Assembly (NCBI RefSeq): GCF_037042905.1
Contig: NC_087250.1
Span: forward strand, 15,750,001 to 15,814,000
Length of the DNA stretch: 64,000 nucleotides
Direction of reading: 5' to 3'
From: Lytechinus pictus
Lineage: Eukaryota
A program made the position numbers and the translations under genes. Positions 778-45,800 of this stretch are shown piece by piece. Positions within the stretch are counted from its first letter, which is position 1; the number at the start of each line of letters is the position of its first letter. Below the pieces are notes generated by a model. That model searched no databases. It was not told the DNA's origin and saw only the letters and a list, made by a program, of their open reading frames with translations.

Positions 778-882
778 CTGATGGCCCATTCAATCTGGCA
801 AAGGACACCAACAATCTTTCGGAACTTGCATCAAGGCTTTCATTCAGAATAGCAGAATCTTCCATACCCAAGGGTTCAATAT
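778..882 (-). CDS. F5/8 type C domain 3, exon a: IEPLGMEDSAILNESLDASS...ARLNGPS
   Basis: cttacag|AT...G|gtaaga; phase 1-1; gene continues left of the window. Confidence 0.9.
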
Positions 883-9800: not shown

Positions 9801-12800
9801 ATGATATTTGAAAGGGATAGATTGTATTCTGGTAATATAATCAATTCAAAATGGGTCTTTAGACTTTACTGAGGTCTGGGCTATGTAACATACATGCCTA
9901 CAGACATACATAAGACGATTAGAAATAATAGGTTTTCATTGAAAATGTGCATACTAAAAAAACAAGGTGACAGAACCAAGGACTAAGAAATCACTCTCAC
10001 TCCTGAGCCCCATTTCATTAAGACTAACCACTACCCTAACTTTGCCATTCCAGTAACTACCATGGACACATTAAAGCAACAGATCAACATTGAGGTTCCC
10101 ATGCTAGTTACAATTTGGGCAAATTTACCATAATTTAAGTCTTTATGAAACAAGGACCCAGCTGTAGTGCTGGACATTAAGCTGTTGAATTTATTTGGGG
10201 GAAGTGAAAAGTTGCACCGTTTTGTTCGTTTTAATCCTTTTTTGTTGGAAATAGAACACAGCACTTCACAACAATAGAAAATAAGCAATTTTGTTACTGA
10301 TTTACTAATGTGCAGATTTGGGAAGGCACTCTTTAGAGAAATGTGGAAATGTGCTCCCCTTTTTTGTGAAGTGCCCCCGGTGAGATTAGCATGCTATTTC
10401 TTGTCAGCAAATGTTGAAAAAATGACTTGATATTTGAGTAACCGACTTTGAGAGAGAGGTGTACGTTAATATTTTAATGACATCCTTGATGCCCCTTATA
10501 TTGACTATATAAGGCTTATCAATACCTATGAAAGTGAATATACATACTTAATTTTTACATGTTTTTTCCTCTAGATTTTACCCCAAAAAATACATCCGTT
10601 CCCTTTAAACAGCCTTGTAATTTCTGTTGCTTTCATTATATGTATTTTGCTGATGTACATGTAATGTGATACTATGGCGATAAAAAAAAAGGATAGGAAT
10701 ATTGTAATCATATATTCAAAAATTGATTCCTTAATAAACATTTTAATTTGAAATATACTTTCTAATCTTGATTTATTCGTGATTTATTTAATCCACCAAT
10801 TCATATTGCGTGAAAGATATGTGATGATGATGTTATTGCTACCAAACTATGTTGTGATGAAATGGCACTATTTAGATGATGGTAATGATGATAATGAAGG
10901 ATACTTCTATATGACTGGAATATGATGGTGCTACTGATTGATTGATTGATTGATTTTGTTTGTCAGGTATCTATGGGTATAATACTAGTACAACAGGTAA
11001 GAGTATAACATAAAGTATCGAAATACCATGCATGCATGGCAAGATAGCCCATAAAAGCCATTGCAACATGGCATACTGTGACATTTTATCATAAGGTGCA
11101 GCAAAATTAAATGTTCTTCCTAAAGAGATAAATGAGTTTGATTTAAGAGTGGGATAAAAATAAAAATGATATGAGAATAACTGTTTGCTCGCATGATTAT
11201 GTGGTATGTGTGGAAGAGAGAGAGGGGGGTGGGATCGATAGAGAGATTTAGGGGGCGGGCAGGTACAAACATTTAATTTTGTTTGGAAGTGATCGACCTT
11301 TATAAGATAGCCTTGATGAGAGCAAATTCATGCGGGGGGGGGGGGGTACTGGGCTATCTTTTTACTCCCATCCCAAACTCAGATTTTTTTTTTCAATCTT
11401 AAGATTTGCACCAGATTGTTCATTTCAGTTTCAAAATTAGGACAAAATGACCTCCTGATTGCTTTGCTCTCTTGCTCAGATTTCACTGATCATTTGAAGT
11501 ACTTACCCCCCCCCCCAAAAAAAAAAAAAACATTAATAATTTATGGCTATTCATGTGTGTAATGAAAATAATGGGAGTGATGAACACCTGATGAATAGAG
11601 CAAAGATCGAGATCCTTAAGTTCAATCCTATTAACTCTTTGCCCGCCACGGACGACTCGCAGCACATACAGCGGACTGCCAACGACGACTCTAGTCACAG
11701 TTAGCACACAATGCATACGGAACGCATTTAATTGTAATTGTGTGGACACACATACAATAGCGACGCGTGTATTGCATTGTTTACGAATCTAGCTTCCGTG
11801 TTATAGCTTTCGCCAACGTTTTTTAGAGATTTTTCGCGTAAAATTTAGTTTTTTGAACTGCTTTAGGATATATTTCGATGAGCTTTCAATAGCTTGCACT
11901 GCTTTCCTTGTAATAAAAGAATGATACAAATTTCCACCTCCCTATAACAATAAGGGGATCAAAGTATCAATAGACGGGAAGTCTCCCAGGACGGGAAGTC
12001 TATTGAGAAGTAGCCAGGGACAATTTCAATAGAAGAGTTTAGTTCATTGTCAGTTTACTCTTTTTAAATGCCCCATTTCAATCCTAAACTGCTTAGCTCA
12101 TAATGACCATAAAGACATGGATTTGGTATGTAATAAAAGCTAAAGAACACATCTTTTCAATGGACTAACTTAGAAATTTAACCTACATTAGGAAGTATTG
12201 AATATAAGAGGTATAAAATACCCTCCTAAACAAAAAATTGGAAACAGAATGTAAAGTTAAAATTCTCAAAATCTATGATTTTATACATAGCAAAAATGAT
12301 ACCATCGGCAAGAATATTCATTTCTCTAAAACTTTGCTACACAATTTTTTTCAATACGACAAACCAGTAAAAAGTTATTGCGAGTTGAATAAGACAGTGC
12401 ACGCAAACCCCCTCTGAATGTGGCACCCCAAAATTAATGTGGCGCAGGGGGGAGTGTACGTGGCGGGCAAAGAGTTAATGAATCCCTTGTAAGCTTCCAT
12501 ATGTCTTTCAGGGAAATAGCTAGCAAATAAATAGTTGTATTAATTGATGTAGTAATAATCGCGACAGATACTAGTAATAATTAAAAATATGTAAACAAGA
12601 AAAGATTAATAAACAACTAAATACCTGGGGGATGAACGGGGAATGAATGGCTTAATCTTTTTTTACCAAAGACGCAGCTCTATGAATTCATTTCATATTC
12701 AATCACGTCGCACATTATGCTAATAAGTGATAATATACTTATTTCTACGCTGTGCCCGCAGGCCAATTATGACCACGTCTCCGTTTCGCTGGTGTCCCAT

Positions 12801-15800
12801 GAAGTTGCGGTGTCCATAGGCTTGTACGCGAAAAATGGGAGTAGTGTGCACTTTTGACCTTCCAAAATTTCTCCATGTCTGACCGGATGCAGAGTTTCAC
12901 CTCCCTGATTATAATGTAAAGATCTATACTGAAGTCAATTACCATCCTGAATGTTGAGACGAGCTCGGAAAGCACAATGATACTCATTCCAGCAAGAACT
13001 TTGAGTGAGTTGGTCATCTTGTATGCGTCCATCCTCCATTCCCAAGGGAGCGTATGAAGCTGAAAAGGTTCAAGAATCAGAATAATGTCAGCATAGTTCA
13101 ATCCAATCCAAGGAAGGGCGGTATGGCCCAAATTAGCAAAGGTGGTTTTGAAAACCAACGGTTGAACCCATGGCAGATTTCGTGAATAAATTATGCTTAA
13201 TTTACCAAGTGCATTAGACAAATTTCCAATGCTAACGCGTGCTTTTGTCACAGTGCCCCATAATGATGCTTGTTGACATGGTTGAGCACGCTATTTTATT
13301 AGTGAGTCCACTGTTTTGAAAAATGGACTCGTAACCGAAGGTATTCAAAACAACCATTGTGAATTCAGGCTTACATGTACATGTATGTGCCCAGCTACCT
13401 CAAACCAAATAAAAATCTCTGTAAAAATGGTATGTGGTCTTCGAAACAAAAATGAAAAATTTAAGCATATCTGAAACGGTGATTCTTCTCCTTCATAATG
13501 TTATAATTTTAGATTTGAACCCTAAAAGAGCCGTTATTTGGACCCCTCTTACAGCCGGGAAGGGGAGGGGGTGGATTCCACCCCCAGAGATCTCGACCTT
13601 CGAGCGCCGCGAAAATTTGCAGTGGTAGTGTGTGACAAAATCTGTGTGGTTAATATTTCTTTAAAATAATAAGATTGTTTATTTAATGAATTATGCTAAT
13701 TTATGCATGAAATAAAACATTTGCTCCAATGAACTATCGTACTGCCCCAACTGCTAATTTTGTAGGATCCCGATCAAATGTACTTCAAAATAAATTGGGT
13801 ACCAGAATCCGACCCTGCCCCCCCCTGGCCTTTTAGGGTAAAAGTTACATTGTAAATACTTAGATAACAAGAATACAAGTTTCTTTGGCATAAGATTTTG
13901 CAGACTGCTTGGAAGTTTCAATGCAATTGCAAATTGTCCATATCATTCTCTCCTTGTTCTTTGAAACCCTCAATTAATTTCTTCTCAATTCTCTCCTTGT
14001 TCTTTGAAACCCTCAATTAATTTCTTCTCAACTCTCTCCTTGTTTTTTGAAACCCTCAACATTTTGTGGTTCAAGCAAGGAGATCCAGTAATTGTCAAAT
14101 TTATAAAAATTGAAATATTGTACAATTCAAATATTTATCAAAAGAAATAGTGAGTGAATGATATCGACTCTCTTCCACTTGCATATCACAGAGTTGAGCA
14201 TAGAACTGTTTTGTGAAAAATAAGCAAAACTTTGAATTGTCATAACTTTCTTATTTTACATCTGATTTTGATGAAGTTGTCAGCATTATTCATGTTTGAT
14301 TTTTTTCTATTTATTTATTTTTTCTGGGGTGGACTTGACCTTTAACTTTGGTAGCATTTGGCTGCGTTCAGGTGCGGATGTTTGAAAACTCTTCAAACTA
14401 CCGAGCTAGAAAACAAGGCCTTTGCATTAGTCTTGAGTCATTGCGTTGTGTTGTGTTTGACTGTCTTTTTTTATGCGTTCAGGCAATCTGAAGCTGAACA
14501 CAGGCCCAAAAGACAAGGGTGTGAGCAAGGCTTAAATGTGGTCAATGATGTCTGGGTTTTCAAACTCTGTAAAACTAAAATGAACAGGGTTAACCAATTC
14601 CCCCATTATTTCTTTTATAACTGGAATTCATTATCGAGGATCCTTAGCATCTAAATAAAGTAATTCAGAGTTGACAAGGGGAGAGAGAGAGGGAAAGAGA
14701 GGAGAAGGAGAGGGAAAGGGGGAGAGAGAGGGGGAAAAGAGAAAGGGGGAGAGAAAGAGAGGGGGAGGTAGGGGAGAGAGGGAAGGGGGGAGAGAGACAG
14801 AGGAGATCAGAGAGCGAGGAGGGAGAGAGAGTGAGGGGGAGGGGAAGAGACCTACCTGGTGATGGTATTTCAAGGACTTTCATATCTGTTTCATAACGGA
14901 CTCCTATCAACTCCAATCTCAAACACGGAACTTCCCATGTCGATGGATTCATGATCACGTCGGTGACCCGGACGTATCGGGCCAGAATTTCCCGCCGGAA
15001 GTAATTCGGATAAACCCCATCTTGGTTGTTATTTCCTGTGAAAATCTGGAGATGAGAATTGGAAAACAAATGTGCATGATGATCTGGAAAAAAAGCCTTT
15101 TAATGAATATTCTAGAAGTTTATAAATGAAATAACTGAAGCCGCTTGTCAATAGTCTGTGCTAATTTTGCTGTGTGTTCAACACCTTTTTTGTTTCTTTC
15201 TGTACCAAAAATACAAATCCATTTTGAAGTATGTACTAGGGTTACTTGTGCACAAGCTGAGGAAACCAATTGACAATACTGAAGAAATAAAAGTCCGGAA
15301 ACTAATCTACTGGGCCACAACGCTCCATGACAAAGATATATATTTTTAGGTGTCATATTGCCCAAGTAATGAATGCTTTTCATTCGTGCAATAGACAGAA
15401 TACTTATTTCAGTGAAAGAGATGAATGGACCATTTCATCTCTCACCTCATGAAGTATTCTGTCCATTGCACTCATAAACATCCATTATTTGTATAACATT
15501 TAATACAGAATAAACTAGAGTTACACGATTTGTGGGATTCACGCTTGCTTTATTCAGATAATAAACCTGTGGGGCGCACTCCAGCATCTAACCCGGACAA
15601 TGGAAAAGGGTTGTAATTCACCTTTATCCTTGTGAGCAAATCAGAAGACATATGCAAATTAAGTTATTAAAGGGAAAGTTCACCCTGACAAAAAGTAATT
15701 GTAAAAATAGCAAAAATAATGAAAATTATAAAAGTTTGAGAAAAATCCATCAAACAGCAAAAAAAAGTTATTAGAATTTCAATTATTTGATTTGGGGAGT

Positions 15801-18800
15801 CATATGCGAACAGCTTTCCTACATATCATATCATCTTATTATCTATCGCAATATTAGATTACCTTATTATCATTTGTCGGAATATAATAATAATAATAAT
15901 CAGGGTAATAATACCAGTCCTATGATAATAAAATACTTTGTTATTTGACATTAAATGACATTTTAACTTGATCATATACCCTACGACTTGTGCAGGAAGA
16001 TCAGTGATACTTGATTACCCCTACCCGGGGTAATAATAATGTGTTATGCGCTATACAAGGACTATTATTATTATATAAGATTACCTCATTATCATCTAGG
16101 TTTCTTGCGGAGAACCATGTGACCTCGTCTGAGCTGTAGATTACCCGGAAACTTGCAGGCCACAGCCACAGATCCCTGCGACCCTGGGTCATTACACCAG
16201 CAAGAGGATGGACGGCCCCCAGATCAACCTGGATCCATTCATCTGGGCCGGAATTCTTCGCACACCAATGCCCCACCAGGCGGCCATCTTTCAATATTCA
16301 AGAAAAATAAGGTTAGCGAGTTTTCAATACCACTTCGCAGATGCTTTCTGGAGTGTAGAGGAAATATTATAAATGATCATTGGACTTCATTAACGGATTA
16401 CATGTGCATCTCCATAATATATCTTTTCCAATGCAGTACTGCACCTGTCCTATCAAGGATTGCCGCTTCATCCAACTTAGCCGGCATCCAGCTTTCCCCA
16501 ACTTGATATACACCTTTACCTTCGGGGTGTTGAATGATCAATGTCAGTTATCATTGGTTTGATGTCCCATTGGATGGCTTGATTGATAGGGCAGCCTCAT
16601 ATTATAAAAGTCATCTCTAATTGTTGAAATCAAACCAATTTAGTACAAGTATTCTGTGGATGCAGTTCGTATCAAAGTTATCGTGTTTGTGTTCTTGAGA
16701 TATGTCCGATTCTCATGTCACAGATCCATAGAGAAAACCTAAACTTTTGTAATGAGAGATAATCTGCAGTCTGACCAGATCTTGTTTCAGGTGTTAAAAT
16801 GCTCGGAGTGCACCTTTTCAATACCACAGTGAATTGTGTAATGTCCCCTTGTCCATTTATCAAATTTCTAATATTCACACATCTTCATATCTTCAGTATC
16901 TTCATAAGATAGACTATTTCTAATTGATAACGAAGATATCTTTCAGAGGATGGTGGGTTCCTGACATGTTTGGTGTTCCTGTAGGTGATTATAATGTACT
17001 GATACTTATATCCGATTGATAAACTACACTGCATAAATCATACTTTTAATTGATTATTAGATCTGTTATCTAATTATAAAGGATATATAAAATATTTTAA
17101 TATATCTATTTCAAGAAATTTAATTTCAGCATGATTACAGATTTTCTAACTTCTAAACTCTTCTTTTCTTACGGGTTCATTGAATCTGGTTATTTTCATG
17201 ATTATAGGATCAGCATCAATGTTTTTATATTGGGCATGTCTAATATACCTTGCAAGTATATTATTTTCTATATACAGGTGTGGGTGTAGGAGCATGTGTG
17301 TGTATTTGTTCCTGAGTACAATTAACAGTTGTGGCAAAAGAAGTTTATCAAATGATTCAATCATTGAAGCTTAATATTTGTCTGCCATTGATATTAGTTT
17401 TTTAAAGATCTGGCAGAAAATACAAGAACATGAAAAAATATCAACGAACAATAAAATACATATAAAAATTGACTTAAATATTATATTTAAGGGCCAAACA
17501 ATTATCACAATGAAACAAATGCTATTTGTACCCAAAATAATAAATGTTTTAGGTGCAATTATCAAATTATAGCATAATATTGCAAAATATGCATACATTT
17601 GCATAATCAATTAGCCACAAACAGAAATAACAAATTTTCCCAAATGGTACATGTTACTGTATGTATGCTGGATTTTGCAGTATCCATATTGGTGAAAGCG
17701 AATATTATAAAAAAAATATTGTAGAAATAAGATTATAAATGGTCAATTTGGCAGCCATTTTGTTTATGCAAATTAGGTGATAAAAACATGAAAAATTGAC
17801 TTGGGAATTGGTCTTATCAGATTCAGCACATTCCAATTAGGGAAAACAGACCGGTTTCCAACTTTTACCCCAAAATGCTTCTTGAACTCAAATTCTCCCC
17901 ATATTGGTCTTGTCTATGTCAAGGTTATGATATTTCAAAAACTTATAAACCTTCCTTAGGATTTCATCTGGACGTTGGTCAAGGGTCATCAAACCAAGGC
18001 AGGATGTTCAATAAGACTTGATTATGTTAAAGTCGAACAAGTAAGTCTTAGTTTAATGAACAAGGTCAATGTACATTCTAATTCACAATGACATTTGAAA
18101 AACTTAACCTTAGGTTTTAAGATTTGAATGTTGACGATGCCGTCTCGCTCTGCTACACAGGAGACACAAAAATGATATCTGCCCTACCTGCTTCCTGGTT
18201 AAGTCTGGCGCTAGAAGGTGGGTACCTTTCACTATGAAAACTGCTTGCAGAGAACAAAATATTGTTCAACCTTCCATCTTCTGCTCCCATGGTAACGAAC
18301 GTTTCTAGTGGAAAAAGATAAAGGTTTTTAAGAAAGAATGCAATGGCTTCTGTGACGAATAATGCTACTGATCTTTCATAGACAATTCTGTGAATAGACC
18401 AGTTCGTAGTTACTTCTGGACAATTTTGGTCAAATGACCTTTGATTTCTTTCAGTGTGATAGGCAGATTTCAAAGCAAGATATTACGTAAGCATGCCTTA
18501 CATAGCAAGATAAAGAAATTGAATAGACCAGGTAACTAGAATAGCAGACCATTCAACACTCTATGAAGGTATTTGTTGCATTTCTACTTTGAATGCATAC
18601 TATAGCATATTGTACAATGTATTTTCAAAACTGTGAGATACCAGTCGTCCGTGGACAAATTGTTTTTTGTGGATGTAAATTAAAACAAGTGGAACGCCTC
18701 TGGTAGTCTCGCCTGCATTACGCGATTTAATATAGCAGCAGTGCTAACTTTGAAAACTACTATAAAATAATAATTCACAAAAACACCATTCATATAATGA

Positions 18801-21800
18801 CATAATACCACATTCATTGACCATAGATGACATTTGAACGGTGACTTAAGACTTGTCAACTACACCCATGTCCACATTTCATTCACTCTATCCATAAACT
18901 TTCAAAGTTATGATGGCAATTCATCATTTACCCCAACACGGCCAAAGTTCATTGACCTTAAATGACCTTTGACCATGGTCATGTGACCTGAAACTCGTAC
19001 AGGATGTTCAGTGATACTCGATTACTCTTATGTCCAAGTTTTATGAACTAGATCCATAAACCTTCAGAGTTAGGATGGTAATTTAACAAAGACCCCCAAC
19101 ACGGCCAAAGTTCATTGACCTTAAATGACCATTGACCATGGTCATGTGACCTGAAACTCGCACAGGATATTCAGTGGTACTTGATTAACCTAATGTCCAA
19201 GTTTCATGAACTAGATCCATAAATTTTCAGTTATGAAGGTAATTCAACAAATACCCCAACTTGGCCAAAGTTCATTGACCCTAAATGACCTTTGACCTTG
19301 GTCATGTGACCTGAAACTCAGGAAGGATGTTCACTAATACTTGATTAACCTTATGTCCAAGTTTCATGAACTAGATCCATAAATTTTCAAAGTTATGATA
19401 GTAATTCAACAAATACCCCCAACTTGACCAAAGTTCATTGACCCTAAATGACCTTTGACCTTGGTCATGTGACCTGAAAATCGAGCAGGATGTTCACTAA
19501 TACTTGATTAACCTTATGCCCAAGTTTCATGATCTAGGTCCATATACTTTCTAAGTTATGATGTCATTTCAAAAACTTAACCTTCGGTTAAGATTTTGAA
19601 AATAATTCTCCCAACATGGTCTAAGTTCATTGACCCTAAATGACCTTTGACCTTAGTCATGTGACCTGAAACTCAGGCAGGATGTTCAGTAATACTTGAT
19701 TAACCTTATGTCCAAGTTTCATGAACTAGGTCCATATACTTTCTAAGTTATGATGTCATTTCAAAAACTTAACCTTAGGTTAAGATTTGATGTTGACGCC
19801 GCCGCCGCCGCCGCCGTCGGAAAAGCGGCGCCAATAGTCTCGCTCTGCTATGCAGGCGAGACAAAAACACAACTCAAAGGAATATATGAATAATCAAGAC
19901 ATCAAATTTGGTGCTTATCTCATTAAATTTTAAACCATCATGTCACTTTAGTACAAATGACCTTCCTCTGATCATGCGCAGAATCTTCTGATCATGCGCA
20001 GAGTGGAACTATGAACTGGCTTATTTAACAGATGAGCAATACAATTTAAAGGGGGGGGCAAACATGGAGTATGGAGAAAGACTTTAAAAAAGCAATGAGC
20101 AAGCGAAGCAGGTGAGCAACATTTTTAAACTTAAAATTAAAAACTAATAATTTTATGATTCAATTAGAAAAGTGAGCAAATATTTGGACCTTTATAATGC
20201 AAAAATCAAAGTTTCTGATTGAATTTGATATAATTAAGCCCTGGTAGATGACTCTACATAATTTTGATTCCTGCAAAATTGTCTACCTATTATTTCTAAT
20301 TTTTTTAAGATTGACATATCATTTTAAAAGAATTTCATATAAACATATAGATATAAGATTGATATATGTGCACTCAAAAACCTGGCATGGTCGGTCAAAT
20401 CTTTCGTCTTTGGAAGATTCATTAGTACATCAATAAGCATTTTGTATTGATTTTTGAGGAAAAAATCCTCCCAAATGTAATGTTTTTAAATCCAATGTAA
20501 CATATATTTCAATGTTATGATGATATTCCACGTACTGTATGCGTATGGAATTCCACACCATGTCTGAGGGGGTCCAACGTTACAGTATTCTACAGTAAGC
20601 GGATCTAGTTCAGTGATGCACACTGGTGCTGTCTCGTTGATAGATGGCGTCCTGCAGTAGTTATGATCGCCCAGACCCGAGTTGTAGGTGTCGTTAACGA
20701 TGCTTTGCAATAACCAGTTTTTGCACGCATGACCATTCTCCGAGACACTGACAAACCCTCGATAATCCAAGCCTTGCGGGTCGGTGTAGCATTCAGGTTG
20801 ATAGTTAACTAGAAAGAAAGAAAGAGTAATTAAACACCATGGCCCGTATTCTGAAGTCGGGTTTAACTTAAACTCAGGTTTAAAGTTGTGGTTTAAGTAT
20901 GGGAAGCCAATTGTTACATAAATCACTAACAGTAGAGATATCATACTTCATCTCATTTGGCTCTCAAATCATTCATAATTATCTATAACGTATAAATAGA
21001 TGATTGTCTTCATCAACGATGAATCAGGAAAAAAGCACAATAAACATAAGAAACATACAACTTAATAAAAATTTTGATACTTTTGGCCTCCCATACTTAA
21101 ACCACAACTTTAAACCTGAGTTTAATTTAAACCCGACTTCAGAATACGGGCCCATGAAGCAAAGACAAGAATCCCCCAAAACTGCCTTCATAATACCTTT
21201 GCCATCCAATTTTAACTGCATGGAATCCATGATTTTGGCTGGCTGTTGATCCGCGTTACCATGGTAGTTATTATTGAATGGCAAAGTTACCATAATATAG
21301 TAACTTGTACGCAACGTGGCCCTGACCTGGTGGGTGTTTCATAAAGCTGTTCGTAAGTTAAGAGCGACTTTAAGAACGAGTGGTGATCCTTTCTTTTGGT
21401 AAATGGTACATACATGTACCATTGGCGATGCTTTAGCGCATAAGAAAGGTTCACCAGTTGTTCTTAAAGTCGCTCTTAACTTTATACGAACAGCTTTATG
21501 AAACGGCCCCCTGGAAAATATGACACTGTTCCCAGTGACATGACATACTGCTCCTGTCTTAATATCGCAAAGGGCATAGGGTTAGGGTTAGGATTGTTGG
21601 CGGTGTGGTCTATTGGTTAGACTCTCGTCTTTCAATAAAAAAATCTGATAAAAATTTAGATAAAAAGTACTGCACCTTTAGCAGGAATATTATTCTATTT
21701 TGGCCTGAAATGCACCATAATGGAAAAAAAATTAACTTCAAAGGGAAAAAAAGCAGTGACTCACTTCGGCTGTCGCACAATTCCCACTTCCCTGGTTTAT

Positions 21801-24800
21801 CCGAAATTAATACTTAAACATATGGCCAGTGAGTCCCTGTAAAGATCAAATTAGAACTTGGGTGTCTGTAATTGGTGAGTGGAGCCAACGGAGTTCAGCG
21901 GAACAGCCAATATAACAGAGACCAAAGCTTTTGGTCTAAACCCACCCTAACCTCAATCATATGTTACATATTTCGTTGGTTTGTCCCAGTATGTGACCAA
22001 TACATTTTCTTTCTCCGTATTTGATTGTGTTCAGGAGGCTATTTGTTTCTTCTGATATAACTAGCACCTATTCAAAGGCATTACATAAGCGTTCCATGAC
22101 ATTTCCTCTAGCGACAATTGCTCCGCTGTATATTCCACACACTAATGGAATAGCCGACTTCAACCCTGGATTTAATTTAAATGGAAACTATCCTAAACCT
22201 AATCCTAAATCTGTTAAAGATAAAACCATATTGTTACCCTAAAACCTTTATCTTAGACGAAATAAAGCCCACAGCAAATGTCATGTCACCGATATACAAT
22301 CTGAAAATTACACCATCTGATAGTAGAAATAGATAGACACAAACTCGGGCTGCAGATGGTCAAAATAGTAGAAGACCTATACTATAGGAAATATTTATCT
22401 CATCATCTATTCTATTCCATCGAATCCTTAAAAATATTCAAAACATTTTACATATTAAAACATTCACAAGTACACGTTTCTTCCCTGATTCCATCTTTTG
22501 ACTTGAAATACAGAGAAACACATAATAGTGTGGGTGCGTCGTGGTCTAGTGGTTCTGACTCGCACCTTTCAAACAGTGGGTCGTGGGTTTGAATCCTCGC
22601 CATGGCGTGTTTTCCTTCAGCAAGAAATTTATCCACACTGTGCTGCCCTCGACCCAGGTGAGGTAAATGGGTACCGGCAGGAAGTAATTCCTGTGCGCAC
22701 CAGAATCGGTAGACTAGCTTAGCCGGGGTAATATAGGAGAGCCTTGAGCACCTAGCAAGGTGGATACGTGTGGTATACAAAGGTTATATCATTTTATTTT
22801 CTTATTTATTTGATAATAACCCTTTTAATCTCACCATTCTCAAATTCTGTCGCGACTTCGCCCACATACAAATTGATGTCATCATTGAATTCGCCAATCA
22901 CAAAGGTCCCGATGTCTACACCAGTCCCCGTCCATTCGCTTGTATGGAAGGAAGCTGAGATGACCGGTTTGTCATCAGAAGGAAGCTCGATGTTTTGGAA
23001 TTCCATGAATAGTTCTGAGGAGCACTCAAACCGTTCGGCCATAAACATATCAAATGTGTACGAATCCCCAACCTTTGAAAATGAATGGATACATATAAAG
23101 ATAAGATGATGTTTGGACGAATTTCATAACACATCAAATGTGTATAAATCGCCAATGTTTTGAAGGGAGAGTGAACTGTGTGTGGTCCCTCATTGACTAT
23201 GTGTTATAAATACATAGTCTTAAAATACACGTTTTCAGATATCTACTAATACTACAGAGAATAAATTGACCTATAATTGTACTTGTATAGAGAAACTAAA
23301 ATGTTTTGAGAGGAAAAGTAAATATTTTGCTTCTTGGTAACATAATTATTGCAGTATAAATTTACTGAGTAGTTAATTAAGCATGTTATCATTAAAGTCT
23401 ATATTACTAGGCTACACTAGCATTATGAGTCAGGAAACTGGCCAGGTGTAAGTAGTTGAGGACTCGATATGGCGCTACTGGTTCGTATCTGCTTTAAGAT
23501 TAACAAATAGGACAGAATGAACTTTCGGGCATGAAATTGCATTGTGGGAGAAACTGTTTCACGGGGATTTGCAAATATTAATAACAATACAATTGGAAAT
23601 TGGTGTATGATGAAAGATGTTCCCTTCACCATCATTATCCGGACCCCGTATAACAAAGAGTTATGATTGATCTAATCTACCTCAAAAATATATGGAAATC
23701 CACCGATGTCATCATTTTTTCTACAGGAAATTATAACAATGCCCTTTGTGAACAAAAGAAAGCACGCTGAATTTTCTAGAAAGCAAACAATGTATGCATA
23801 TACATCATATCTAGAAAATATCTTCAACAAACATGCATGTTATAGTTGATGTTGATTGCTTTCCATAGTTGTGGTTGATTGGATCAATCGCAAATCTTTG
23901 TAAGACGTGGCCCAGGAATGAATTCATATATTGGGATATCAGGTCATTATCAGGTACCTCAATAACTAGTAAGCTGAAATCATTATCTAGCGACATATGA
24001 CATGAATGAGAAAAAAAGGGGGAAATATGAAATGGTGTTAAAAAATAATTGAATATGAATAATCCAGAATTACCAGTGTGCATCTTTTTTTATGATGTTC
24101 AGATTTTCTTTCATAATTGGAACTTCAAACAGACCATAAAGACAAAATAAAAGCTCCTTTGAGCCAAGAATTAATTTCTAGCTGCCCCTAATCATTTTTT
24201 CTGTGAAAATTATAAAGTGATGAAATAGGTACAAAAAATGGGTTTACCCTTAACAAGATGGTCACATTCTCATTTGGTAGATATGACAGCGAAGCACACC
24301 TCCCATGCTTAATAACTCCTTGGTATATAGATATTCTCACCTCCCCTATGAAGAGAAGAGAGGAGCAGGTATCCATACATTTATAAAACAAAATAAATAT
24401 TATATACCTAAAACTTGACAGTCACCCCCCCCCCAGTTCAGCTGCTTCTGGTGAAGCCTTGTGCTGCTCTCGACCCAGGTGAAGTGCATTGGTCCTCAAA
24501 TTATTTTTGTTTTCTCTTTAATAACACTTTAGCCTATGTGGCGGCTCAGCTACTACCAGGGTAATATATGATACCAAGTATTAAGCACAGTAGAATATAT
24601 ATATGCATATACATGTAGGAACTGCAATATATATAAAATGTTATTATCATTAGTAGTAGAAGCGTTAGTATTACTAGTATCATCATTATTATTGTTATTA
24701 AGCTTGTTATGCTCTACAATATGCCCTTGAAATCTTGAGCCAGGCCACAAAGTGTGCAACGTGCTGATACTCAAAAGCATAAAATACATTTTTATAGATT

Positions 24801-27800
24801 TTTTCAAAGTCGGGTAATGTATAACGTAAAAAGCTACACAAACTTGCAAAAATCAGGAATTTACCAGTTTTGCATCAATATCTGCAAACCAATCGTTTAT
24901 AAACCATTCACAATCATGGAGATGGCTGAAAATGTCAGGATACTTTTTTTATCTCCAGCTTCTTAACATCCAATGAATAAATTTGTGAAATAAGTTCTCA
25001 AAAATGAGTGTATTGCTGTGTAGTGAACATATTGTCTGAGATGAACAAAACTTAATAAGCCTGTTCACGGTTGTAAACTGCGCACAAGCAGAAAAAGGTC
25101 ATTGGAGACAACCATGAAGGTGGCTTTCAAATTCACTGACATAGGCATTTGTGATTTGATAATTATTCATGTATTCCTTTCAAAATATTTATCACATCCA
25201 AGCTGAAGAGTAATAAATAGAGCCTTCATAATCACTGGTATTTGACAGTAGCCTAAACAATAGTCAAATGTGCCAATTAAACGCAGACAATAAAACAGAT
25301 ATCCAAACTTTATCCCTGATGTACTATTCTAGTTACCTGGTCTATACAATGCCTTTTGTTCTTAGAATTTGAATACTCTACCGGTAAAGCTTACGCAACA
25401 TCTACATTTGAAAATGATAGTGCTTATCCTAATGAAAAATCACAAAGGTCATTGGAGAAAAGTTGATCGTGAGCTAACCGTGAACTGGCTTATTCCCCAC
25501 AACTCACTTCAACTTCACTACATACCATCGTTGTTCTGTAGTTCGGCTTTTTTGCAGATGATTTGATGAAAGTTGTGATTTATGATTTCCATGATCAGGT
25601 GTCCATCCAAGAAGAGCCATATTTCCTCACCTCCGCCCAGGGTGATGACCTCTTGACCTGAATGGTGGAAGCTACTCCTTAGGACACTTGTGAATCTTGG
25701 ATGTGGGGTCACAAAGAAAATACGTTTGACTAAGAGTCACACTTTGCATACTTCAATATTTGCCATGAAATGTAGCTGGATGTGAATTGCATAGAATATT
25801 CATTAATGTACTTACATGTATGCAGTTCTTATAACATTTCATAATGTTCTTGGTTTTTGTATTCTATTTAGTATGTGTGATCTCCCTCTATTTTCACCTC
25901 TCTTTTTCCGCCCTCTCTCAACTTTTTCGTTCTGCAATACATTTCTACTACTATCTCCACCAGCTTCCTCACTTTTCTTTCTCTTATCTCTTATTTCCAT
26001 AATTATTGATGCCATTCAAGCATACGCCAAAAAATTCAATTTTTCTGTACTTGCAGCTATTGTTTTTACTTTTTTACTAATTATGTTGTAAATTGGCCCT
26101 TTCAGCCCTTCTGCTGGCCAATATTTATATGTGCATATACCAATAAACAAATCGATAAATGAATCAATTAGATTTAAATGCCAAGTTGCGTGCCGAATCA
26201 AAGACATCGGTATATTGGTCAAATCACTCTAAGAGGACGCACGCAGCTGCCTATTAATCAATAAGATTGCGCCTTAAATAATCAGGTGTGGTTAGTATTA
26301 AACTTTAAGTCGCACCCCAATCCCCTCCCTCAGTTCAAGACAAAAAGAGAATCATTGTGATACCACTGATATAGTTTTATCAAATTTTGTCTATAATGAT
26401 GATAATTTCTTTTCTTCTCGTCTTCTGCTTTCCTTCCAGTTCTTCTTGTTGTTCGTTTTATGATTATTCTATTTTTTTTTTTACTCTTGTTTATCCTTTT
26501 CTTTTTCTTCTTCCTCTCCTCCTTCTTCTTCATCCTTTCTTCTTCTTCTGTACTTTTTCTTCTTCTGCTAGTTTGAGAGTTGGCTTCCTTCTTTTAATTA
26601 CTTTTTAATATTTTCATTATTTGTGGTGATATGATGTAGTGATTCAGTCACTTGACTCTTAAACCAAAGGTCAAGGGTTAAAATCCCACCGGGCGCTACT
26701 GTCCTCTGGCAAGGCACTTATCCACATTAGTCACTCTCCTCCCAGGTGTTAAAGGGGAATCCGACCCAAATGAAAACTTGTTTTAGAGGAAAAAAAAATC
26801 AGACAAGCTGATAGGTGAAAGTTTGAACAATATCGGACAAACAATAAGAAAGGTATGATTTTTTAAGTTGTAAATATTGGTAATCACTTTACCCATGGAG
26901 ACTTCAAATTGGCTGCATATATGATGTCATAGTGATGTAAAGGCAAGGACTACTCTTCCATGTACTCCGATACATAAAATGGCTAAAATATCATTTTATT
27001 CAAAGTTTTACTTCAAATTACATTTTTTGTTTCATGAGGACATAAAACATTATTACCTACATGTATACAAGGCATTTTAGGAGATAAATAAAAGTCATAT
27101 TTTGCTCGCTACTTTCAATCCCACACCAACGAGGTAAACATTTGCCATGTTGCCCACCCCGGGCTTTGCCCATAGGAATCCTGTACAAAACAGAGGGCAA
27201 TATTGGCCATATTTTTGCTAGCGCGCTTGCGCAGTAGGAGCCGAATTTGACCACTAATTTAAGTATTTGAGAAATCTGGCTGGAACCAGTTTATGAACCA
27301 ACGCATTGTAGATACACAAACGCAACCCAAGCACAAGATTTGTACTCGTTGACTGTATGTGCGCGCCATGCATGATGCGCGACTACAACAATTTACGTCA
27401 CAATTGCTTATTAGAGTTACTTCGCTAAGTTTGTGAATAACCTGAAATCGAAAGTAGTGATAAGCAAACAGGCATATAAATTGTTCCAAATAATAGCTTG
27501 AATTACACATTGTACAGCCTTAGGCAATAATGATCATATATTATTACCTATACGAAGTGTTTTCCGTGGCAATCATTATCCATATTTTGCTTTCTCTGAT
27601 TTCGCAGCGGTCAATATCGTGCCATATTTTCTCTCTTCCGGGTTTTCCTATTGACAAATTTTATGTCAGATTTTTGGGAAATTTATCAACACAGATTTTG
27701 GGGAATTTTTTGAATGAATTTACTATATAGGTAATAATCATAATATTAACTGGCATAGAATGAGATACAAACCTATATTTCCCTCTCTGAATCCAATATA

Positions 27801-30800
27801 GGTTTGTATCTCATTCTATGCGAGTCAAATATTATATAAATATACTACCTGGGTCATATTTAGATTACTGCCCCAGGGGAAAGGGTACTTGCTTATCCGA
27901 TTTCTTTGAAACTTTCACCATTCTTTTTTGTTTATTTTTCTTCTTTCCAATACAACATTTTATGACCAAGGCTGGATTCCCCTTTAAATGGGTACCCGGT
28001 AGAATGTGAATGTCAATGTGATAAGACGGGCATGAGTGCACGGATAAGATAACAGCAACAATTATCATTACTTTTTTAAAACTGAAAATCGCTCTTACCC
28101 AAAATTATGAAAAGCACCATCACAATCAGATAAATCCTCGTGCCCAAAGCCAAGTTCATCAATGGGAAAATAGGATTCATTCCACGACCTATAGGTAGTG
28201 AGAAAACAATCGATGGAAATACATCTTTTAGATTTAGATTTCATGTGTTTAAACCATAATAGCAATATATAAGTCTTACTCAAAAGAAAAACAAATGCAG
28301 GACTTTGATGTGTGTTTGATATTGGTGCTATGGACAAAATCACGAAGTTAGAAATTAAAGTTATTAAGGGCATGCAAACTAGCGGCAGCCTTTAAAGCCC
28401 CATCTCAAGTCCTCAACTACTCCTATCTGGCCAGGTTTATTACCCATAATGCAACATTCTCAGTAGGGTAGTCTTGTAATATAGGCCCAATTGAAATAAA
28501 ACACACTAATTTACTACTTAATACATTCATATCGCAATAACTATGATACCAAATAGTAAAACAGGTACATGCAGACCTGCCAACCTCTGGGAATGAAAAA
28601 CTGTATTCTGTGATAAAAAAAACTGTATTTTTCCCCAAAAAAGTGTATTTCATAATAAAATGCTTGGCGCACTCGCTCATCGCGGCGCTCAAGCTGCATG
28701 CAAGCTAAAATGCGCACTGCTCTTGCAGATGAAAAAAAAAACATTAAAACATGTGTATATCTTCACCCTGGTTTGAACAAAATGATTGAAAAAAAAAAAA
28801 AGTTACCTGAAATTACATTGATCTAATAACCATATTTGTGCACGTTTTATGAAATAGAGACATATAGAGATTATTTTTCTCAATAAATTATGATTTAGTT
28901 ATAAAAAAAAAAATAAAAAAACATGTATTTTTCAAAGAAAAAACGTACTGCCGTATTTTGGTTGCAAAAACGTACTAAATACGGCTAAAACGTACTGGTT
29001 GGCAGGTCTGTACATGTACCTATCCTCTCAAACATTCTATTTTTTCTATACTCTGCGGCAATCATTCTAACAGGTCCCAAGTGAGGGAGCAAGCTAGGAA
29101 AAAAATTTGACAAAATTTTCATACAAAAAGCTAATGGATATTGACAATAAGCTGCATTTGGCAATATCTATTTCACCATCAAGTGCCTTTCCCTTACTTT
29201 TCTTTCCTTGGTCATGCAAATATTTTTAGGGGGCTAGGCCACAACCATCCCCCCCAACATTTAAGCATCTATATGTGGTCTAAGTGACACGACGTCTACT
29301 TATTCTACAATTTTTCAAATCATAATGTATGATAAACGGTTCAAAGGTCACAGAAATATCACAGAGTTATACGAGAAACTAGAAATTAGACAAAATGGCA
29401 AATGGGCTAAATTACTGAATTGCAATCAAACTGACTGGCTAGTGGACACCGGGTGTACACCAAGTGGCGATTTTCCCCACCCCTTGATTCAGTGTTCGGA
29501 TCCAGGTAAGCTCAACCCCCCCCCCCCCTTTAGAGAGCCATAAAAATATATATTAGTGGAAAACAATGTGCAAAGTTTTCCTGACATAAATCACAATTCA
29601 ATGGGAATGAAGACCCTTTTGGGGCTTTTTAATTTTTTTCTGTACAAACCCCTCCCTCTTAGAGCTGGCAACCTATAGAAGTAAATAGTAGTAATCCTGC
29701 AGCTCAATATAATTTTATATGTGCCATGGGGTAACAACAAATTTATTAGAAGAGGTACTAGTAATATATAAATGAACAGAATACACAATGCTCATAAATG
29801 CCGAGTTTGCTATCCCTACATGATGGTTGTGAGGTATATTTATCCAGGATGCCAGATGTGTGTTACTTTTGTGAAGCTCAATCTTGTCAGGAGAGTGCAT
29901 TTAATAACTGCAGTTTCTTACAATGTGTGTATTAAAGTTGTACGTACCTATTCTACCTCAAAAGCATAAAGGTCAAAAATTGCCTAATTTGGTTTGAAAA
30001 TGAACAAAATATATGACTTTTTCTGAATAGTTGCCCACCCTACATGTTGGTTGTCACTTGTCAGGTATATTTATCCAGGATGCTAGCTGTACATTACTTT
30101 TGTGAAGCACTATCTTGTCAGGAAAGTTGTGCCCCTCCCCCCCCCCCTCTTTGGAAGATCCTAGATCTGCCCCTGCCTTGGTCACTTTAAATAACATACC
30201 TATACAGAGATTCATCGGGGTACCACCACGCCGTTAGGTGTGATGTCAGAGCAACGTTCACTTCCGGGTCAGTTTTAAACCAGGATGAGAACATATCTTC
30301 TTCCGGGTCGTCGGATACTCGCAACCAAGCACCGCTGAAGATATCACGGACGTACTTGGGCGAGTTGTAGGTGGGTAGAGGAGAGGCTCTAGCAAAGTCT
30401 TCATGAGATACACTTTTTGTCGGTTCATAGATGATGATTGAATAGAAAAATAAGATTCAATAACAAAGCGTTTTTAAAAACGGAACATGCAAAGGAAAAC
30501 ATTGAAAATGTAATTGAATTGCCAGTAAGAATGTAACATAGCCCCACTACTACATGCGTTGCCCATGGTATAATCTACAAAATTGCATTGGATTTGTACA
30601 TGAATTCACGTTTTTGAGCAATTTTGAGTCTGCATGCACTAATACATGATGTTGCATAACTTCGGTACCGTTTATCTGGGGGTCGCAAAATTGGTCCCAA
30701 AAGTTGCGCGAGAATTGATAGTACAAAGTCAGCGAGTGACACAGTCCAAAAAGTTTTTGCACTGCGGATTTATCATGAAAAATGTCAAGCGGGGTTGAAT

Positions 30801-33800
30801 CAGCCCCCCCCCCCCCCCCCCCGGTCTTATTAGGGTTAATTTGCAACACTGTGGGTTTGAATTTCTGAAAATGCACAATTGGGATTTTTCTTTTCATGTT
30901 TTTGGATCGCTGACCCCCCCCCCCTCCAGCTATGTACAACCATATGCATGATAATGAGTCATACATGTATATATATATATATATACATGCACAGTTGAGG
31001 CCAAAAGTTTACATGTACCCATGGAATTTGGTGATTTTGTTTGCTTGCCAAACATCGTAAAATTTACTATATCTTCAGAAATATATATAATACCATGACG
31101 AATTTGGTATCAAATGAAAGAGCATGTTAAGCTCTTTCACATAATTGGCATTCCATTGGGATTATAGTATTATTCTATTCAGGTGGAATTTTCTATAAAT
31201 AAAAAAGTAAAATTAGTGCCAAATGTATTCATTGTTTGTTATTATATTTTCAAACATCGTTTCATAGAAATATAAAAATGGAAAATCTATGATTCATATT
31301 ATTATTATTTGTTTGGCGTCACCTGTGCCTGGGAGGCGAAAAGCGAACTGAATCACTATGACTCTCAGGTCTCTCCTCCCGATATAACTGATTGGGGGGA
31401 ATGCAGGTGGACCACTACACCGGGGTTTCCCCCTACTCTTATACGAATAGTGCAGTGGGTTAACGTGCAAAGGTGATGACTCTCCTCTACACGGGGCCTC
31501 CATTTAACATCCTATCCGAGGGACGGTGTGTTTTCCATTGTAACATTACATTTTCTATCATGATATGTCACCACTGAACAAAAAAGTGTAATAAAAATGT
31601 TTGTGTTGAGAAGTAGCAAGTACAAATATGAAATGTTTTTGTCAAGTTTTTATTTTTAATTTGTCTAAAATATAAAGATTTTGGGGAAAAAAATGACACC
31701 TAAATATTTTTCAGCACCTGATGACAAAGCAATGTGATAAAGGGGCATGACATACTCATTTGATTGATATTAAATTCGTCATGATAGCACAAATATTTTT
31801 ATAAGATTCAGTAAATTTTATGATGTTTGACAAGAGTCAACTTTTTTTTGAATTTCCTGGGTGTATGTAAACTTCTGGCCTCAACTGTATATATTTATGT
31901 GTGTGTATACATATAATTTACCTGAAATCGTAGGTAGAAATGGTGAAATTGAGCTGTTGGCCATTCATATCCGGGGGTACTGAATATTTTTTGGGGAAAA
32001 TAACGAGACAGTATTATAACAGACTGATATTAAATTGAACATTGGCAGAAGAAATGAGTGTCAAAGAAAGAAATAAAGAGATTTCGTGCAACTAGAAATA
32101 CAAATAGTTTTACTGAATTAAAAATCCATATAATTGCTGTTAAGGCTTGGTATAGTCTGAACTCTGAAATATAATTTTCCAACATTAACACAAAGTGAAA
32201 AAAGATAAAATCACTAATGTGAAATGATAAATAATAGGTTAAAAGTATAAAAATTGTGATGTTATCTTCTTTGATATAGAAATAATTGAAATAGTAATAA
32301 TTAAAAAATAATACAAGTAATGAAGATTATCTAAACAATGATAATGTACGATGTAAAACTATTTAAAAAAATCATAATTATTATTGCTAGGAACAGGCAC
32401 AATATTAGAATATTCTAATTCAAAGCAATATTAAACAATACCAATCTTGCACATACCACAATCCATGCAATCCTACAGAATGAAGTACTAATCAATATTA
32501 CAAATACTGATAATGATAGAGATATAAAAGGCATTCCAAAGTTTGAAAATTAAAACTGATCTCCTTTGTATTTACCTGTTACTAGAGGGATACATGGTGC
32601 TTCTATGTCATTGTTCTGTGTGCCATTGCCATGTGCAGAACATTCTAAGATATACAAGCAGTGCAATGAGCTTAGTCGCCCCTAAAGGGCAAAATCAACT
32701 TCAAGGGGAAAAAAAGGGCTGAGACAAAACTTCAAAATAATTACAGCTGTGTGATTTTTTTTAATGAATAACCAAAATGTTAATATAAGAGGTGAAAATG
32801 TAACGTAAAAGAGCAGTGTTGTGAATCACATGTGCTGTAAAAATATATATCAAAACAAAGGAACATCAAGTATTAATTAAAAACAAAATAAGAGAAAACA
32901 CATATTATAATAATAGGCATTTATATAGCGCCATCTATCTAGGAATATTCTATTCCGAGGCGCGATATTATTATTATTGCCCGAGCTTTAGCTCGAGCTG
33001 CCTTTCAGCACTCATGCATGCAAGGAATTAATTCTGCTGGGTACCCATTCACCTCACCTGGGTTGAGTGCAGCGCAATGTGGATAAATTTCCTGCTAAAG
33101 GAAATTATGCCATGGCTGGGATTCGAACCCAGGACCCTCTGTTTCAAAGTCAGAAGACTAATCCCCTGGGCCACAAAACTCCACATTCTCAAGTCCAGTT
33201 TACACTTAGGCCATGGTCTAAGTAACTCTTTGGCCCGAATTCACAAAGGTGGTTTTGAAAACCCACGGTTGAATCCATGGTTTATGCAGATTTCCTGTAT
33301 AAATTACGCTTAATTCAGCGCAACCATAAAACATGTCCAATGCTGATGCGCGCTTTTGTCACAGTGCGCCAAATTGACGCCTGTTACCATGGTTAGATAG
33401 GCTATTTTATTCATGAGTCCACTGTTTGAAGAGTGCATGGACTCATTATTATAACCACGGCAACAGGCGTCAATTTGGCACACTGTGACAAAAGCGCGCA
33501 TCAGCATTGGACATTTTTTATGTACGCGCTAAATTAAGCGTAATTTATACAGGAAATCTGCATAAACCATGGACTCAACCTTGGGTTTTCAAAACCACCT
33601 TTGTGAATCCGGGCCTATGTGACTCTTGCTGGTTAGCATAAATTCCTTATTTTGTTTATTTTTTTGAAAGTTGGTCTTAATATAGGTGCTCTATCTATAT
33701 TTCCTGCTTCCACCTTTATTTTTTACCCCTCCCCTCTTCTGTAAGCCTATATCAAAATAGGAATTCAAAGGTAAAGAATTATTGCTTTGAATATTTATTC

Positions 33801-42800: not shown

Positions 42801-45800
42801 ATCCATTAGGTGATTTCAAGTTCAGTGTTGACCTTTAAGTGTTGGTGTTAGGTAAATTTTTACAAGCGCAAAGGAAAATGGATAAAACGTAAAATAAACT
42901 TGGTCCAGAAAAATCACTCACTAGGTGTTGAGCTGTCAATATCGTGATCATTTTTGTAAACTCAGAATAGGCTTTGGAGCTAAGGAAAGCAATCAAAATT
43001 GTGCTTCCAACATTAACACTGGACTTGAAATCACCCACTTTCTTTCTTACGGTTTCCAACAGCTGTGACAAGAAGGCCTCTAGAGCTGGAGTTGCCTTCC
43101 CACACAGAGCCCACACTGCAGATGTACTCGATATCGGCAACCACCCCGTCCATTTCCGTGAACGTGTGCGAGTTTGTTCCAATGGCGTTAACGTTTGCTG
43201 TGAGGGTCGGTGCGTTGTCTTCATTTGTGCATTGTATTTCTGCCTCTCTGTGTTACGAATGCATTTGGGGAAAAAGAGAAGTAGTACAGTGGTAATAGGT
43301 GGCAAGGTTTGACCTTATTTAAATAAACAGAGTGCAATTTGAAGGTGTTAACGTTCACCGTGAGAGTCAGTGCCTTGTCGTCATAAGTGCACTGTATAAC
43401 CACCTCTCTGTGCAGTGAAAACGAATGGCAGAGTAGAAGGATGGAGGTTAAATGGTAAGCAGAGAGAAGGATAGAGAGGAAGTTACCCCTAATAGGACTG
43501 GGGCCATCATAGCCCCCCCCCCCCCTTAACACTTCACGTTATACTTCCCAAAGACAAAAAGATGGCGCTTCAAAATTGTATACATTTTTTCTTTAAAATA
43601 TCGCGATGTACAGGTAGAGTGTTGCGACCCAACTTGACCTTTTATGAGACAATATCATGCCGAAATGGCTAATTTTTATACTTTGTGTAGAAGTTCTAAG
43701 GGAGATGAAATTCATAGTAGGGTGATTATATTTTATTGTTCTGCTTTATAGTCAATTTAGGGTTTAATTTAGTTGTTAAAGGGTCTGCCACCCCAATAAA
43801 CACGAGCCAAGTTTGAAGCTGAACCATGAAATGAATTTTGAGTTATCATGAGGTTCTGTGACCTTTGGCCTCATGACCCCTATGACTTTTTGGTTATTGC
43901 AAGAAGTGGCTCCTTTCGGGTATATATTATGACCCGTGTGACCTTTGACCTTGATACGCACAAAAGAAATCAGATCGTTGTCACTCTAGTATGCATAAAC
44001 TAGGACTAAGTTTAAAGTTGATCTGTCAAATCGTTCTCGAGTTATGCGACAGACGGATGGACAGACAGCCCAAACACAAAATGCCCCCGGCAAGCATAAC
44101 ATAGTAGATATCATAAAATTCCACTCCTATCAACATAACAGCAGGTCCCTTCATCGGCAGATGAGACCACCCTCTCAAGCTCACCATACCTGATGTTGTG
44201 GATGCCTAATTCCTTCCATTATTGTACTGTGTACTTTGGCTTAGCCATATCGTCTGACTTGAGACAAATGTCTTAAAGTTTTTGAATATCGTTAGGGAAG
44301 ATTTCTTAGGCAAGCACAATGCTAAGACAAAGTGCTCAAACTTAAGCAAAAAGCTTATCTCGTTTATGGAATACAGGCCCTGGTAATTAAACACAGGTTA
44401 TACCCTCATCTAGAATTTTAAACCACACGTATATGGAATGCTGGGCTTCATAATAATATTTCCAGCTATCAGAAGTCTGCAGCCCCCTGCTGGACTTTGG
44501 TTATTGTAAACTGAATGGCCATGTATTTACGTTCACCCTCCACTTTTTACTGTAAATACCCTCCATCCCCATTTAGCTTCCGGAATGAACTGCAAAAGGG
44601 ATTCCTCAACGTTCAAAGACCACCTACAGCGGGTGGAGGCATAGACATGAACTTACACCGGAGGGGAGGTTGCTCCTGGGTACGCTTCAGACGGCATTTC
44701 CCAGATCACCGTCACGTTGGTTGGCTCTGGTTTAAAAGCGGAAACAGTCCTGGCAGCTGCATTTGGGTGGAAGCAAGGGAGTAAAAAGGATTTGAAATAC
44801 ATTGCTTAAATACTCAATCCGATCGTGTTTGTAATGGCAGAATCATAAGGGTAAGAATTGAATTTCTCTATTGCTTGAGCACTTGGGGCCTGTTCAATAA
44901 ATATTTCCTATTATTAGTTTAATTACTATGGAAACCTTTATTGTGATTGGCTGCTGCCCTATTCTTATGGTAGTTGCCAATGGCATGATGAGCCGAATAT
45001 ATTAAGGAGGTTAGACATGGGGAATGAGGCAACAGTTTCCCCAAAACTGCAAGGGTGATGGCCAGCTAGCTAGCATTGTTCAAAATTTGAATTAGTTCTC
45101 AGTCCTAAGGTCTGAACGTCAGATACCATAATTCCTCAGTCACATTTGTTCTACAGCCACCGTACGGCGAGTTGAAATAAACAGCTGTTTTATTCATTTT
45201 TATTCAAACCATCTATATGTAGCTGGTACAAAGAATGCTAAAACTGATGTTTTCGACTCGCCGTACGGCCGCCGTAGAGCTAATGTGACCGAGGTACAAT
45301 ATTTCAAAGATAATTCCAAAGATGCATGCTGCTATTACTGCTTCAGAAGAGCCAAATTTGACTCTGATATGCTACCACCTGTGATTGAGACAATCAACAC
45401 TTTGACTCTGAAAAAGGTTCTTTTTCAGCTGTTGTACCTTTCTAAGTCTAATTCATTTGAAAACTTAGTCACTGTTACTCGGAATATAAATGACTCCCAG
45501 CTGCATGGCACCATTTGAAGTCAATATGACTATGCAATAATAAGAGTAAAATCGAGTGTTAAATATAGCTTACTGCAAAGAAATGAGTCTGTGTCGACTA
45601 GACCATAATAGTTTGAATGATCTGTTTTATTCCCGTCGAAGACCAGTCCTTTTGCTGCATCAGGTTCTCGGCAGCGAGACCCGCGGAGGAAATCGGCGAT
45701 AGTGACAAGATTGTAGTATGTGTCACACGTACATTGTAAAGAATTATTCAGCATGCCCCTTTAAAGACAAGACATGAAATTAAAATTAATAGAGTGAAGT

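Follow-up and report, generated by a model that had tools for sequence, protein, structure and literature searches.

The question raised by this locus is whether an animal gene can carry a fibro-slime-type PA14 domain, of the kind found in Fibrobacter, in myxobacteria and in the Psi proteins of Dictyostelium (PMC4931340), and what has become of its calcium and sugar site. The window, a 64,000-nucleotide stretch of Lytechinus pictus (assembly GCF_037042905.1, contig NC_087250.1, positions 15,750,001 to 15,814,000), contains a 21-exon gene that runs on the minus strand from 50748 to 778; coordinates below are those of the window, and every exon of the gene lies on the minus strand. On sequence evidence, six of these exons (E1 to E6, 31979-22835) encode a fibro-slime-type PA14 domain, as an earlier note on this DNA had proposed. 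We consider it probable that the domain belongs to a divergent second mega-thrombospondin (mega-TSP) gene of Lytechinus and likely serves as a disulfide-stabilised extracellular interaction module whose canonical calcium-dependent sugar site has been lost.

Profile searching, a check that the earlier note had put forward, found significant homology to the fibro-slime family along the full length of the domain. Scored against a profile built on 60 non-animal fibro-slime proteins, the spliced domain reached 108 bits (E = 1.9e-32), the best of 500 shuffled sequences 3.3 bits, and a comparison of the animal with the non-animal profile (hhalign) gave a probability of 99.9% with an E-value of 3.8e-35. 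The motifs reported for the locus follow one another in the order described: TYDF at 31935, FSSWFK at 30291, YFPID at 28172, LGGGEE at 25640, YTFDMF at 23060 and AER at 23039, all on the minus strand, with the HNFG/FT motif divided by the intron between E3 and E4. The animal domain shares DF..H.DF, F..W, N, FP.D, HNF.FT, W.F and AER...S in register with the fibro-slime family TIGR02148, but differs from it in having Gly at the first Asp of the GDDD motif (Asp1), in lacking the DxGGxH and G..V...L segments, and in carrying some 30 extra residues with two Cys.

Curated models score the animal domain low. The TIGR02148 cut-off of 45 bits was reached by all four non-animal controls and by none of nine other animal proteins (21.7-44.2 bits), while P0001, which spans only E1-E4, scored 23.5 bits. 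Neither P0001 nor any of 11 animal proteins matched PF07691 at its gathering score of 24 bits, a fragment from the sea anemone Exaiptasia scoring 18.2 bits, and a Pfam scan of the single exons returned no PA14 match.

The fold was assessed on a homolog from Holothuria, which also carries GGEE and stands in for the window sequence. Its domain was predicted by AlphaFold with a predicted local distance difference test (pLDDT) score of 94.8, and the seven best matches of this model among 48,161 chains were PA14 domains or PA14-containing proteins, headed by Cea1A (Z 10.0, root mean square deviation 3.3 across 141 aligned residues), which bears out the predicted PA14 fold in the homolog. A non-animal GDDD control model returned the same set of matches (best Z 9.4). 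The likeness to the PA14 lectins with a DcisD calcium site (Cea1A, Flo5A, Epa, MpPA14 and RsgI-PA14; Z 6.5-10.0) is one of fold, whereas sequence identity is 8-13% and the animal hairpin tip lacks Asp-Asp. In both models the predicted tip consists of two residues, D242-D243 in the control and G137-E138 in the animal domain. When solved structures were searched by sequence, neither P0032 nor P0010 nor alignment A3 retrieved a relative.

The six exons have AG/GT ends throughout and compatible phases, and splice in frame. E1 (31922..31979, phase 1/2) encodes the first strand, ending in TYDF, and matches residues 1-15 of XP_054757145.1 at 100%. E2 (30200..30412, phase 2/2) encodes SHEDF...FSSWFKTDPEVN behind a weak AAG acceptor and is supported by contigs and a RefSeq model: a match to a contig of run X5, whose status as RNA is a guess, begins at 30410, and a contig of run X1 covers 30198-30414. 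An alternative E2 acceptor at 30388 was ruled out, as the contigs and RefSeq model reach 30410-30414. The 90-nt E3 (28099..28188, phase 2/2) encodes YFPID...DC...HNFG and holds an Asp that is invariant in animals (codon at 28127) beside a Cys (28124). E4 (25526..25695, phase 2/1; TIGR02148 E = 0.0016) encodes the hairpin with GGEE (25623..25634), which lies opposite the microbial GDDD with its Asp1-to-Gly codon at 25631-25629, and the first Cys of the animal-type insert (25556); the remainder of the insert, with the second Cys (24298), is in E5 (24248..24345, phase 1/0). E6 (22835..23072, phase 0/1) supplies the final two strands of the PA14 domain, which include AERxxC (Glu 23036, Cys 23024), followed by the N-terminal half of a cadherin-like repeat, which has no Pfam match in the exon and was read by position against P0005, P0162 and P0006.

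Assembled contigs of X5 agree with this splicing. Record 10 carries E4 at 187-357 and E2 at 446-658, separated by exactly the length of E3, and record 9 joins the kringle exon downstream to two discoidin exons across a gap the length of the exon in between; a further X5 contig extends 3.3 kb upstream of E2. The E4-E5-E6 joins were absent from the listed contig pieces and are placed by phase and homology, and no exon junction was found among the 15 rows listed from the joint table (1222 further rows). The nearest database proteins, at 96-100% identity over most exons, are XP_054757145.1 ('protein psiD-like') and XP_054757144.1 ('plasminogen-like') of L. pictus; XP_041467299.1 of L. variegatus is about 90% identical to the window exons (also given as 91%). 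All three are partial models that divide what is here one gene, and none includes E5. In XP_054757144.1 (P0002), aligned to window positions 23072-18188, two copies of the block of E6, kringle and E8 flank a frameshifted piece of E4, while the window has one copy; the doubling may be a tandem duplication, a haplotype difference or an assembly artefact.

The 21-exon model has 1027 codons with no stop, all of its introns are GT-AG, and the gene covers most of the window with leucine-rich repeats (LRRs), an LRR C-terminal cap (LRRCT), an FN3-like domain, the PA14 domain, half a cadherin repeat, a kringle and discoidin domains in that order. Residues 6-522 align with a profile of 25 full-length mega-TSPs as a single colinear stretch (E = 2.4e-119) covering LRR-LRRCT-FN3-PA14. 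Within the window, the LRR array comprises three exons of phase 2/2 (50748-50611, 49591-49520 and 47856-47785; LRR_4 6e-8, LRR_8 1.5e-4) and the cap exon (45574..45758; E = 1.8e-12 against the mega-TSP profile). The FN3-like domain occupies two exons (44756-44657 and 43247-43051) and takes its label from its mega-TSP position, having no Pfam match, and a linker exon (32576..32644, phase 1/1) precedes E1. In the central mega-TSP region, the discoidin domains are identified by Pfam, the FN3-like domain and the half cadherin repeat solely by homology.

A search of 1.84 billion representative sequences gave 802 matches at E <=0.001. The best long ones, proteins of 2,000-2,950 amino acids, come from echinoderms, hemichordates, an annelid and molluscs and combine LRR, cadherin, discoidin, EGF, TSP3 and TSP_C domains. 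Searching with the Acanthaster domain gave 35 matches, all long invertebrate proteins (lancelets included) or unnamed ones, and TSP_C (PF05735) was present in 32. Homologs of the domain come from a cnidarian (Exaiptasia), an annelid, molluscs, echinoderms, hemichordates, cephalochordates and a tunicate (Ciona). The accessible text of the mega-TSP paper (Shoemark 2019, PMC6526912) describes an architecture that follows the order seen here, with LRRs, an LRR cap, an FN3-like domain, a cadherin-like start and discoidin, and two gene products in some species; it names PA14 for Hydra mega-TSP only, whereas we find the domain in bilaterian mega-TSPs of five phyla. In the literature searched, with most subscription journals outside its scope, we found no description of a fibro-slime domain across the mega-TSP family.

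The window gene is distinct from the canonical L. pictus mega-TSP (P0162, 2,911 amino acids). In the tree it groups with P0005 of Diadema antillarum (support 99/99) and the canonical urchin pair lies outside this group, and we therefore regard it as a second, divergent paralog. As to the age of the duplication, a single urchin clade stays compatible with the data (p-AU, the approximately unbiased test, 0.096). The nearest relative, P0005, carries EGF, TSP3, TSP_C and a second ConA-like domain. The window product would be a secreted matrix protein. Two Diadema models (P0005 residues 1-190 and the N-terminus of P0152) lack the E1 strand and are probably mis-predicted; their start resembles a fragment of a long interspersed nuclear element (LINE) ORF1.

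After the PA14 domain, the first cadherin repeat of canonical mega-TSPs is interrupted by a segment that varies. In P0005 this segment is an EGF-like module; in the window gene it is a kringle exon of phase 1/1 (20536..20808; PF00051, E = 2.4e-11), followed by discoidin domains. The paralog differs from the described mega-TSPs in that a kringle and two or more discoidin domains immediately follow half a cadherin repeat. The first F5/8 type C (discoidin) domain (14856..18304) is encoded by exons 18304-18188, 16287-16085 and 15045-14856, and the second (3049..13059) by exons 13059-12943, 7247-7042 and 3220-3049. Of 40 long animal homologs, none gave a significant kringle match, the best E-value being 0.23. 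It is likely that exon shuffling added the kringle/discoidin block at the point where mega-TSPs break the repeat.

The earlier note was right that GGEE replaces GDDD, but its description in terms of D-to-E changes is incomplete: aligned in register, the first Asp has become Gly, which is the key change, and the other two have become Glu. Among 46 animal rows, a few of them isoforms or near-duplicates and four of them unnamed proteins assigned by score, position 1 reads Gly 44 times and Ala twice, and it is Asp in 128 of 132 non-animal domains, mostly unnamed and without taxonomic placement. Position 2 is Asp in 31 of the animal rows and Glu in 15. GGEE is not peculiar to this gene either; it occurs in 8/46 animal domains, including the canonical L. 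pictus paralog and those of Holothuria, Amphiura, Solemya and Exaiptasia. DxGGxH (DLGGxH in the consensus of alignment A3) is found in 0/44 animal rows against 118/132 non-animal domains. From their position, the first two Asp of GDDD would correspond to the DcisD calcium pair. Three non-animal domains have VDDG at the hairpin tip, which we take to resemble the classical PA14 motif.

The insert with Cys noted previously is present, yet it is neither confined to exon 24248-24345, beginning as it does in E4, nor special to this gene: 41 of 43 scored animal domains have a two-Cys insert. It is about 30 residues long and bracketed by one Cys pair, and that of the window scored 30.6 bits against a profile of the other animal inserts (shuffles <=6.5). 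Animal domains conserve four Cys in all, which may form two disulfides gained in the animal lineage of the domain; of six non-animal domains with a Cys ahead of HNF or a Cys behind ER, three have both (Fisher p 1e-4).

Asp1 and DxGGxH are missing from every animal copy examined. The canonical calcium/sugar site would have been lost, and two disulfides would stabilise the domain as an interaction surface in a secreted matrix protein, into whose interrupted first cadherin repeat exon shuffling would have brought the kringle/discoidin block. We favour loss of the site because of published cases: a natural PA14 domain with Asn-Gly for Asp-Asp bound neither calcium nor pectin (PMC6852018), and where the Asp pair is missing, PA14 domains either no longer bind calcium and polysaccharide or were judged to be without lectin function (PMC6852018, PMC6218569).

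Several observations weigh against this interpretation. Foldseek gave no clear match for the model, its best hit (E = 4.9e-4) being an L-type lectin with PA14 domains from rank 4, and the equivalence with DcisD is drawn by position. Depth over the E4 bin was near zero (0-0.25) in two RNA runs, and the parts that would encode the signal peptide and the TSP C-terminal region fall beyond the window. Moreover, two of three candidate ligands stay acidic, namely position 2 (46/46) and the Glu of AER (kept in 42/46), and the extra Asp beside the first Cys is invariant in animals (46/46), which makes a rebuilt metal site possible. The domain might then still be a calcium-dependent lectin, with a putative site formed by Asp2/Glu2, the AER Glu and the invariant Asp. 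The inferred disulfide would link this Asp to the AER loop, and myxobacterial TraA has been modelled with Asp-Asp and a Glu as ligands (PMC3325183). We regard this, the main rival, as conceivable but doubtful, given that Asp1 is lost in all 46 rows and DxGGxH is gone, that position 2 alternates between Asp and Glu, and that position 3 drifts to Ala, Gly or Tyr.

The low E4 depth would also fit a duplicate, decaying or chimeric, in which the PA14 domain has ceased to function. So would the branch length of 1.33, the greatest of any echinoderm row (median 0.41), the cadherin repeat of which just half precedes the kringle, and the division of the locus into partial models by RefSeq. We think decay very unlikely in view of the 1027 stop-free codons over 21 GT-AG exons, the spliced contigs, the retention of all four Cys and most animal-invariant residues, and the counterparts in L. 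variegatus (91%) and Diadema antillarum.

The domain's origin was addressed with two trees. In each of them a long branch sets the animal rows, Exaiptasia included, apart from the rest, with support of 100 in a quick tree and 100/99 in a mixture-model tree. The nearest non-animal group differs between them: in the mixture-model tree it comprises P0046, P0097 and P0087 (support 93/77, unstarred), and a myxobacterial-type donor, suggested by neighbours with TIGR02232 repeats in the quick tree, found no support there. The phylogeny called for earlier therefore separated the animal rows and left the donor group dependent on the tree. Non-animal relatives are mostly bacterial-looking (Atlas clusters Fibrobacterota, Myxococcota and Planctomycetota), and three bacterial genomes (L001, L002 and L003, match at 1201-1290) have Asp1-to-Gly/Ala changes in otherwise ordinary domains, found in a pattern scan that had no GDDD control count. 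These two observations could be taken to suggest recent transfer from bacteria into sea urchins or animals, or contamination, which we find scarcely credible: the domain is interrupted by five introns, its homologs span many animal groups on the long-branch side, and the three bacterial proteins score far better on the non-animal profile (120-241 bits) than on the animal one (37-61 bits). Recent transfer is thus contradicted, and the dismissal of contamination in the first reading of the locus stands. Of its proposal of an old animal lineage or an ancient transfer, the old lineage is upheld by homologs from cnidarian to tunicate, and transfer before the cnidarian-bilaterian split is possible. 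Database fragments, including the partial Exaiptasia protein, start or stop at the E1/E2 and E3/E4 junctions of the window, indirect evidence that points to old shared introns. The L001-L003 domains are natural Asp1 variants suited to a binding test.

P0046 and P0097 (locus L004:45-1568) are unnamed, eukaryote-like metagenome proteins with fibro-slime and calcium-binding EGF domains, one with a probable transmembrane segment. Like the animal domains they have a two-Cys insert at the same position, a weak match (9.0 and 5.6 bits, with 0 and 1 of 300 shuffles as high); unlike them they keep GDDD and DLGGxH, and they have no LRR or TSP domains. A metagenome scan with P0097 returned its own contig and otherwise matches to EGF only, and all scores in an Atlas search of unnamed clusters were <0.9. 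Sponge, ctenophore, placozoan and holozoan members were not among seven profile-search matches, in a word-limited search that is no evidence of absence. A bolder account would make the animal domains an overlooked fibro-slime subfamily in mega-TSPs, inherited from a unicellular-eukaryote surface protein resembling P0046/P0097. A new disulfide would place the invariant Asp where the DcisD Asp was lost and give the domain a new specificity, for a glycan or a protein, that served in matrix assembly of early animals; we consider this account unlikely.

The domain is a conserved, partly annotated module of the known mega-TSP family in a rearranged urchin paralog and not a new system; it sits mostly unannotated in the mega-TSPs of many other marine invertebrates, and the NCBI label of the window gene already reads 'psiD-like'. 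Its recognition accounts for some 235 residues of so far unannotated sequence in a matrix protein reported to be required for head regeneration in Hydra (PMC6526912), shows the reason that Pfam and TIGR profiles miss it, provides a defined, foldable domain with specific residues for ligand-binding tests, and ties an animal matrix protein to a domain used in adhesion and signalling by Fibrobacter, myxobacteria and social amoebae.

The 5' end of the gene was not found in the window; at its 3' end the gene runs beyond the window, and 778..882 is probably the first exon of a third discoidin domain, a weak assignment (E 3.0) based on likeness to the first exons of discoidin domains 1 and 2. A candidate LRR-like exon of phase 2/2 (58711-58628, minus strand) has no Pfam or profile match and was excluded from the model. 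Directly upstream of the second FN3-like exon, 43406-43329 (minus strand) is a partial copy of that exon's start, with 50% identity to P0003 residues 143-168. A minisatellite of about 172-181 bp in at least nine copies (37214-39614) occupies part of the 10-kb intron that separates the FN3-like exon from the linker exon, and further repeat arrays lie at 18868-19788, 41741-42269 (163 bp) and 62469-63765 (220 bp), with a CAT microsatellite at 305-747. The remnant of a broken retrotransposon without long terminal repeats (non-LTR) is intronic at 1484-2813 on the minus strand (zf-RVT, E = 2.2e-5).

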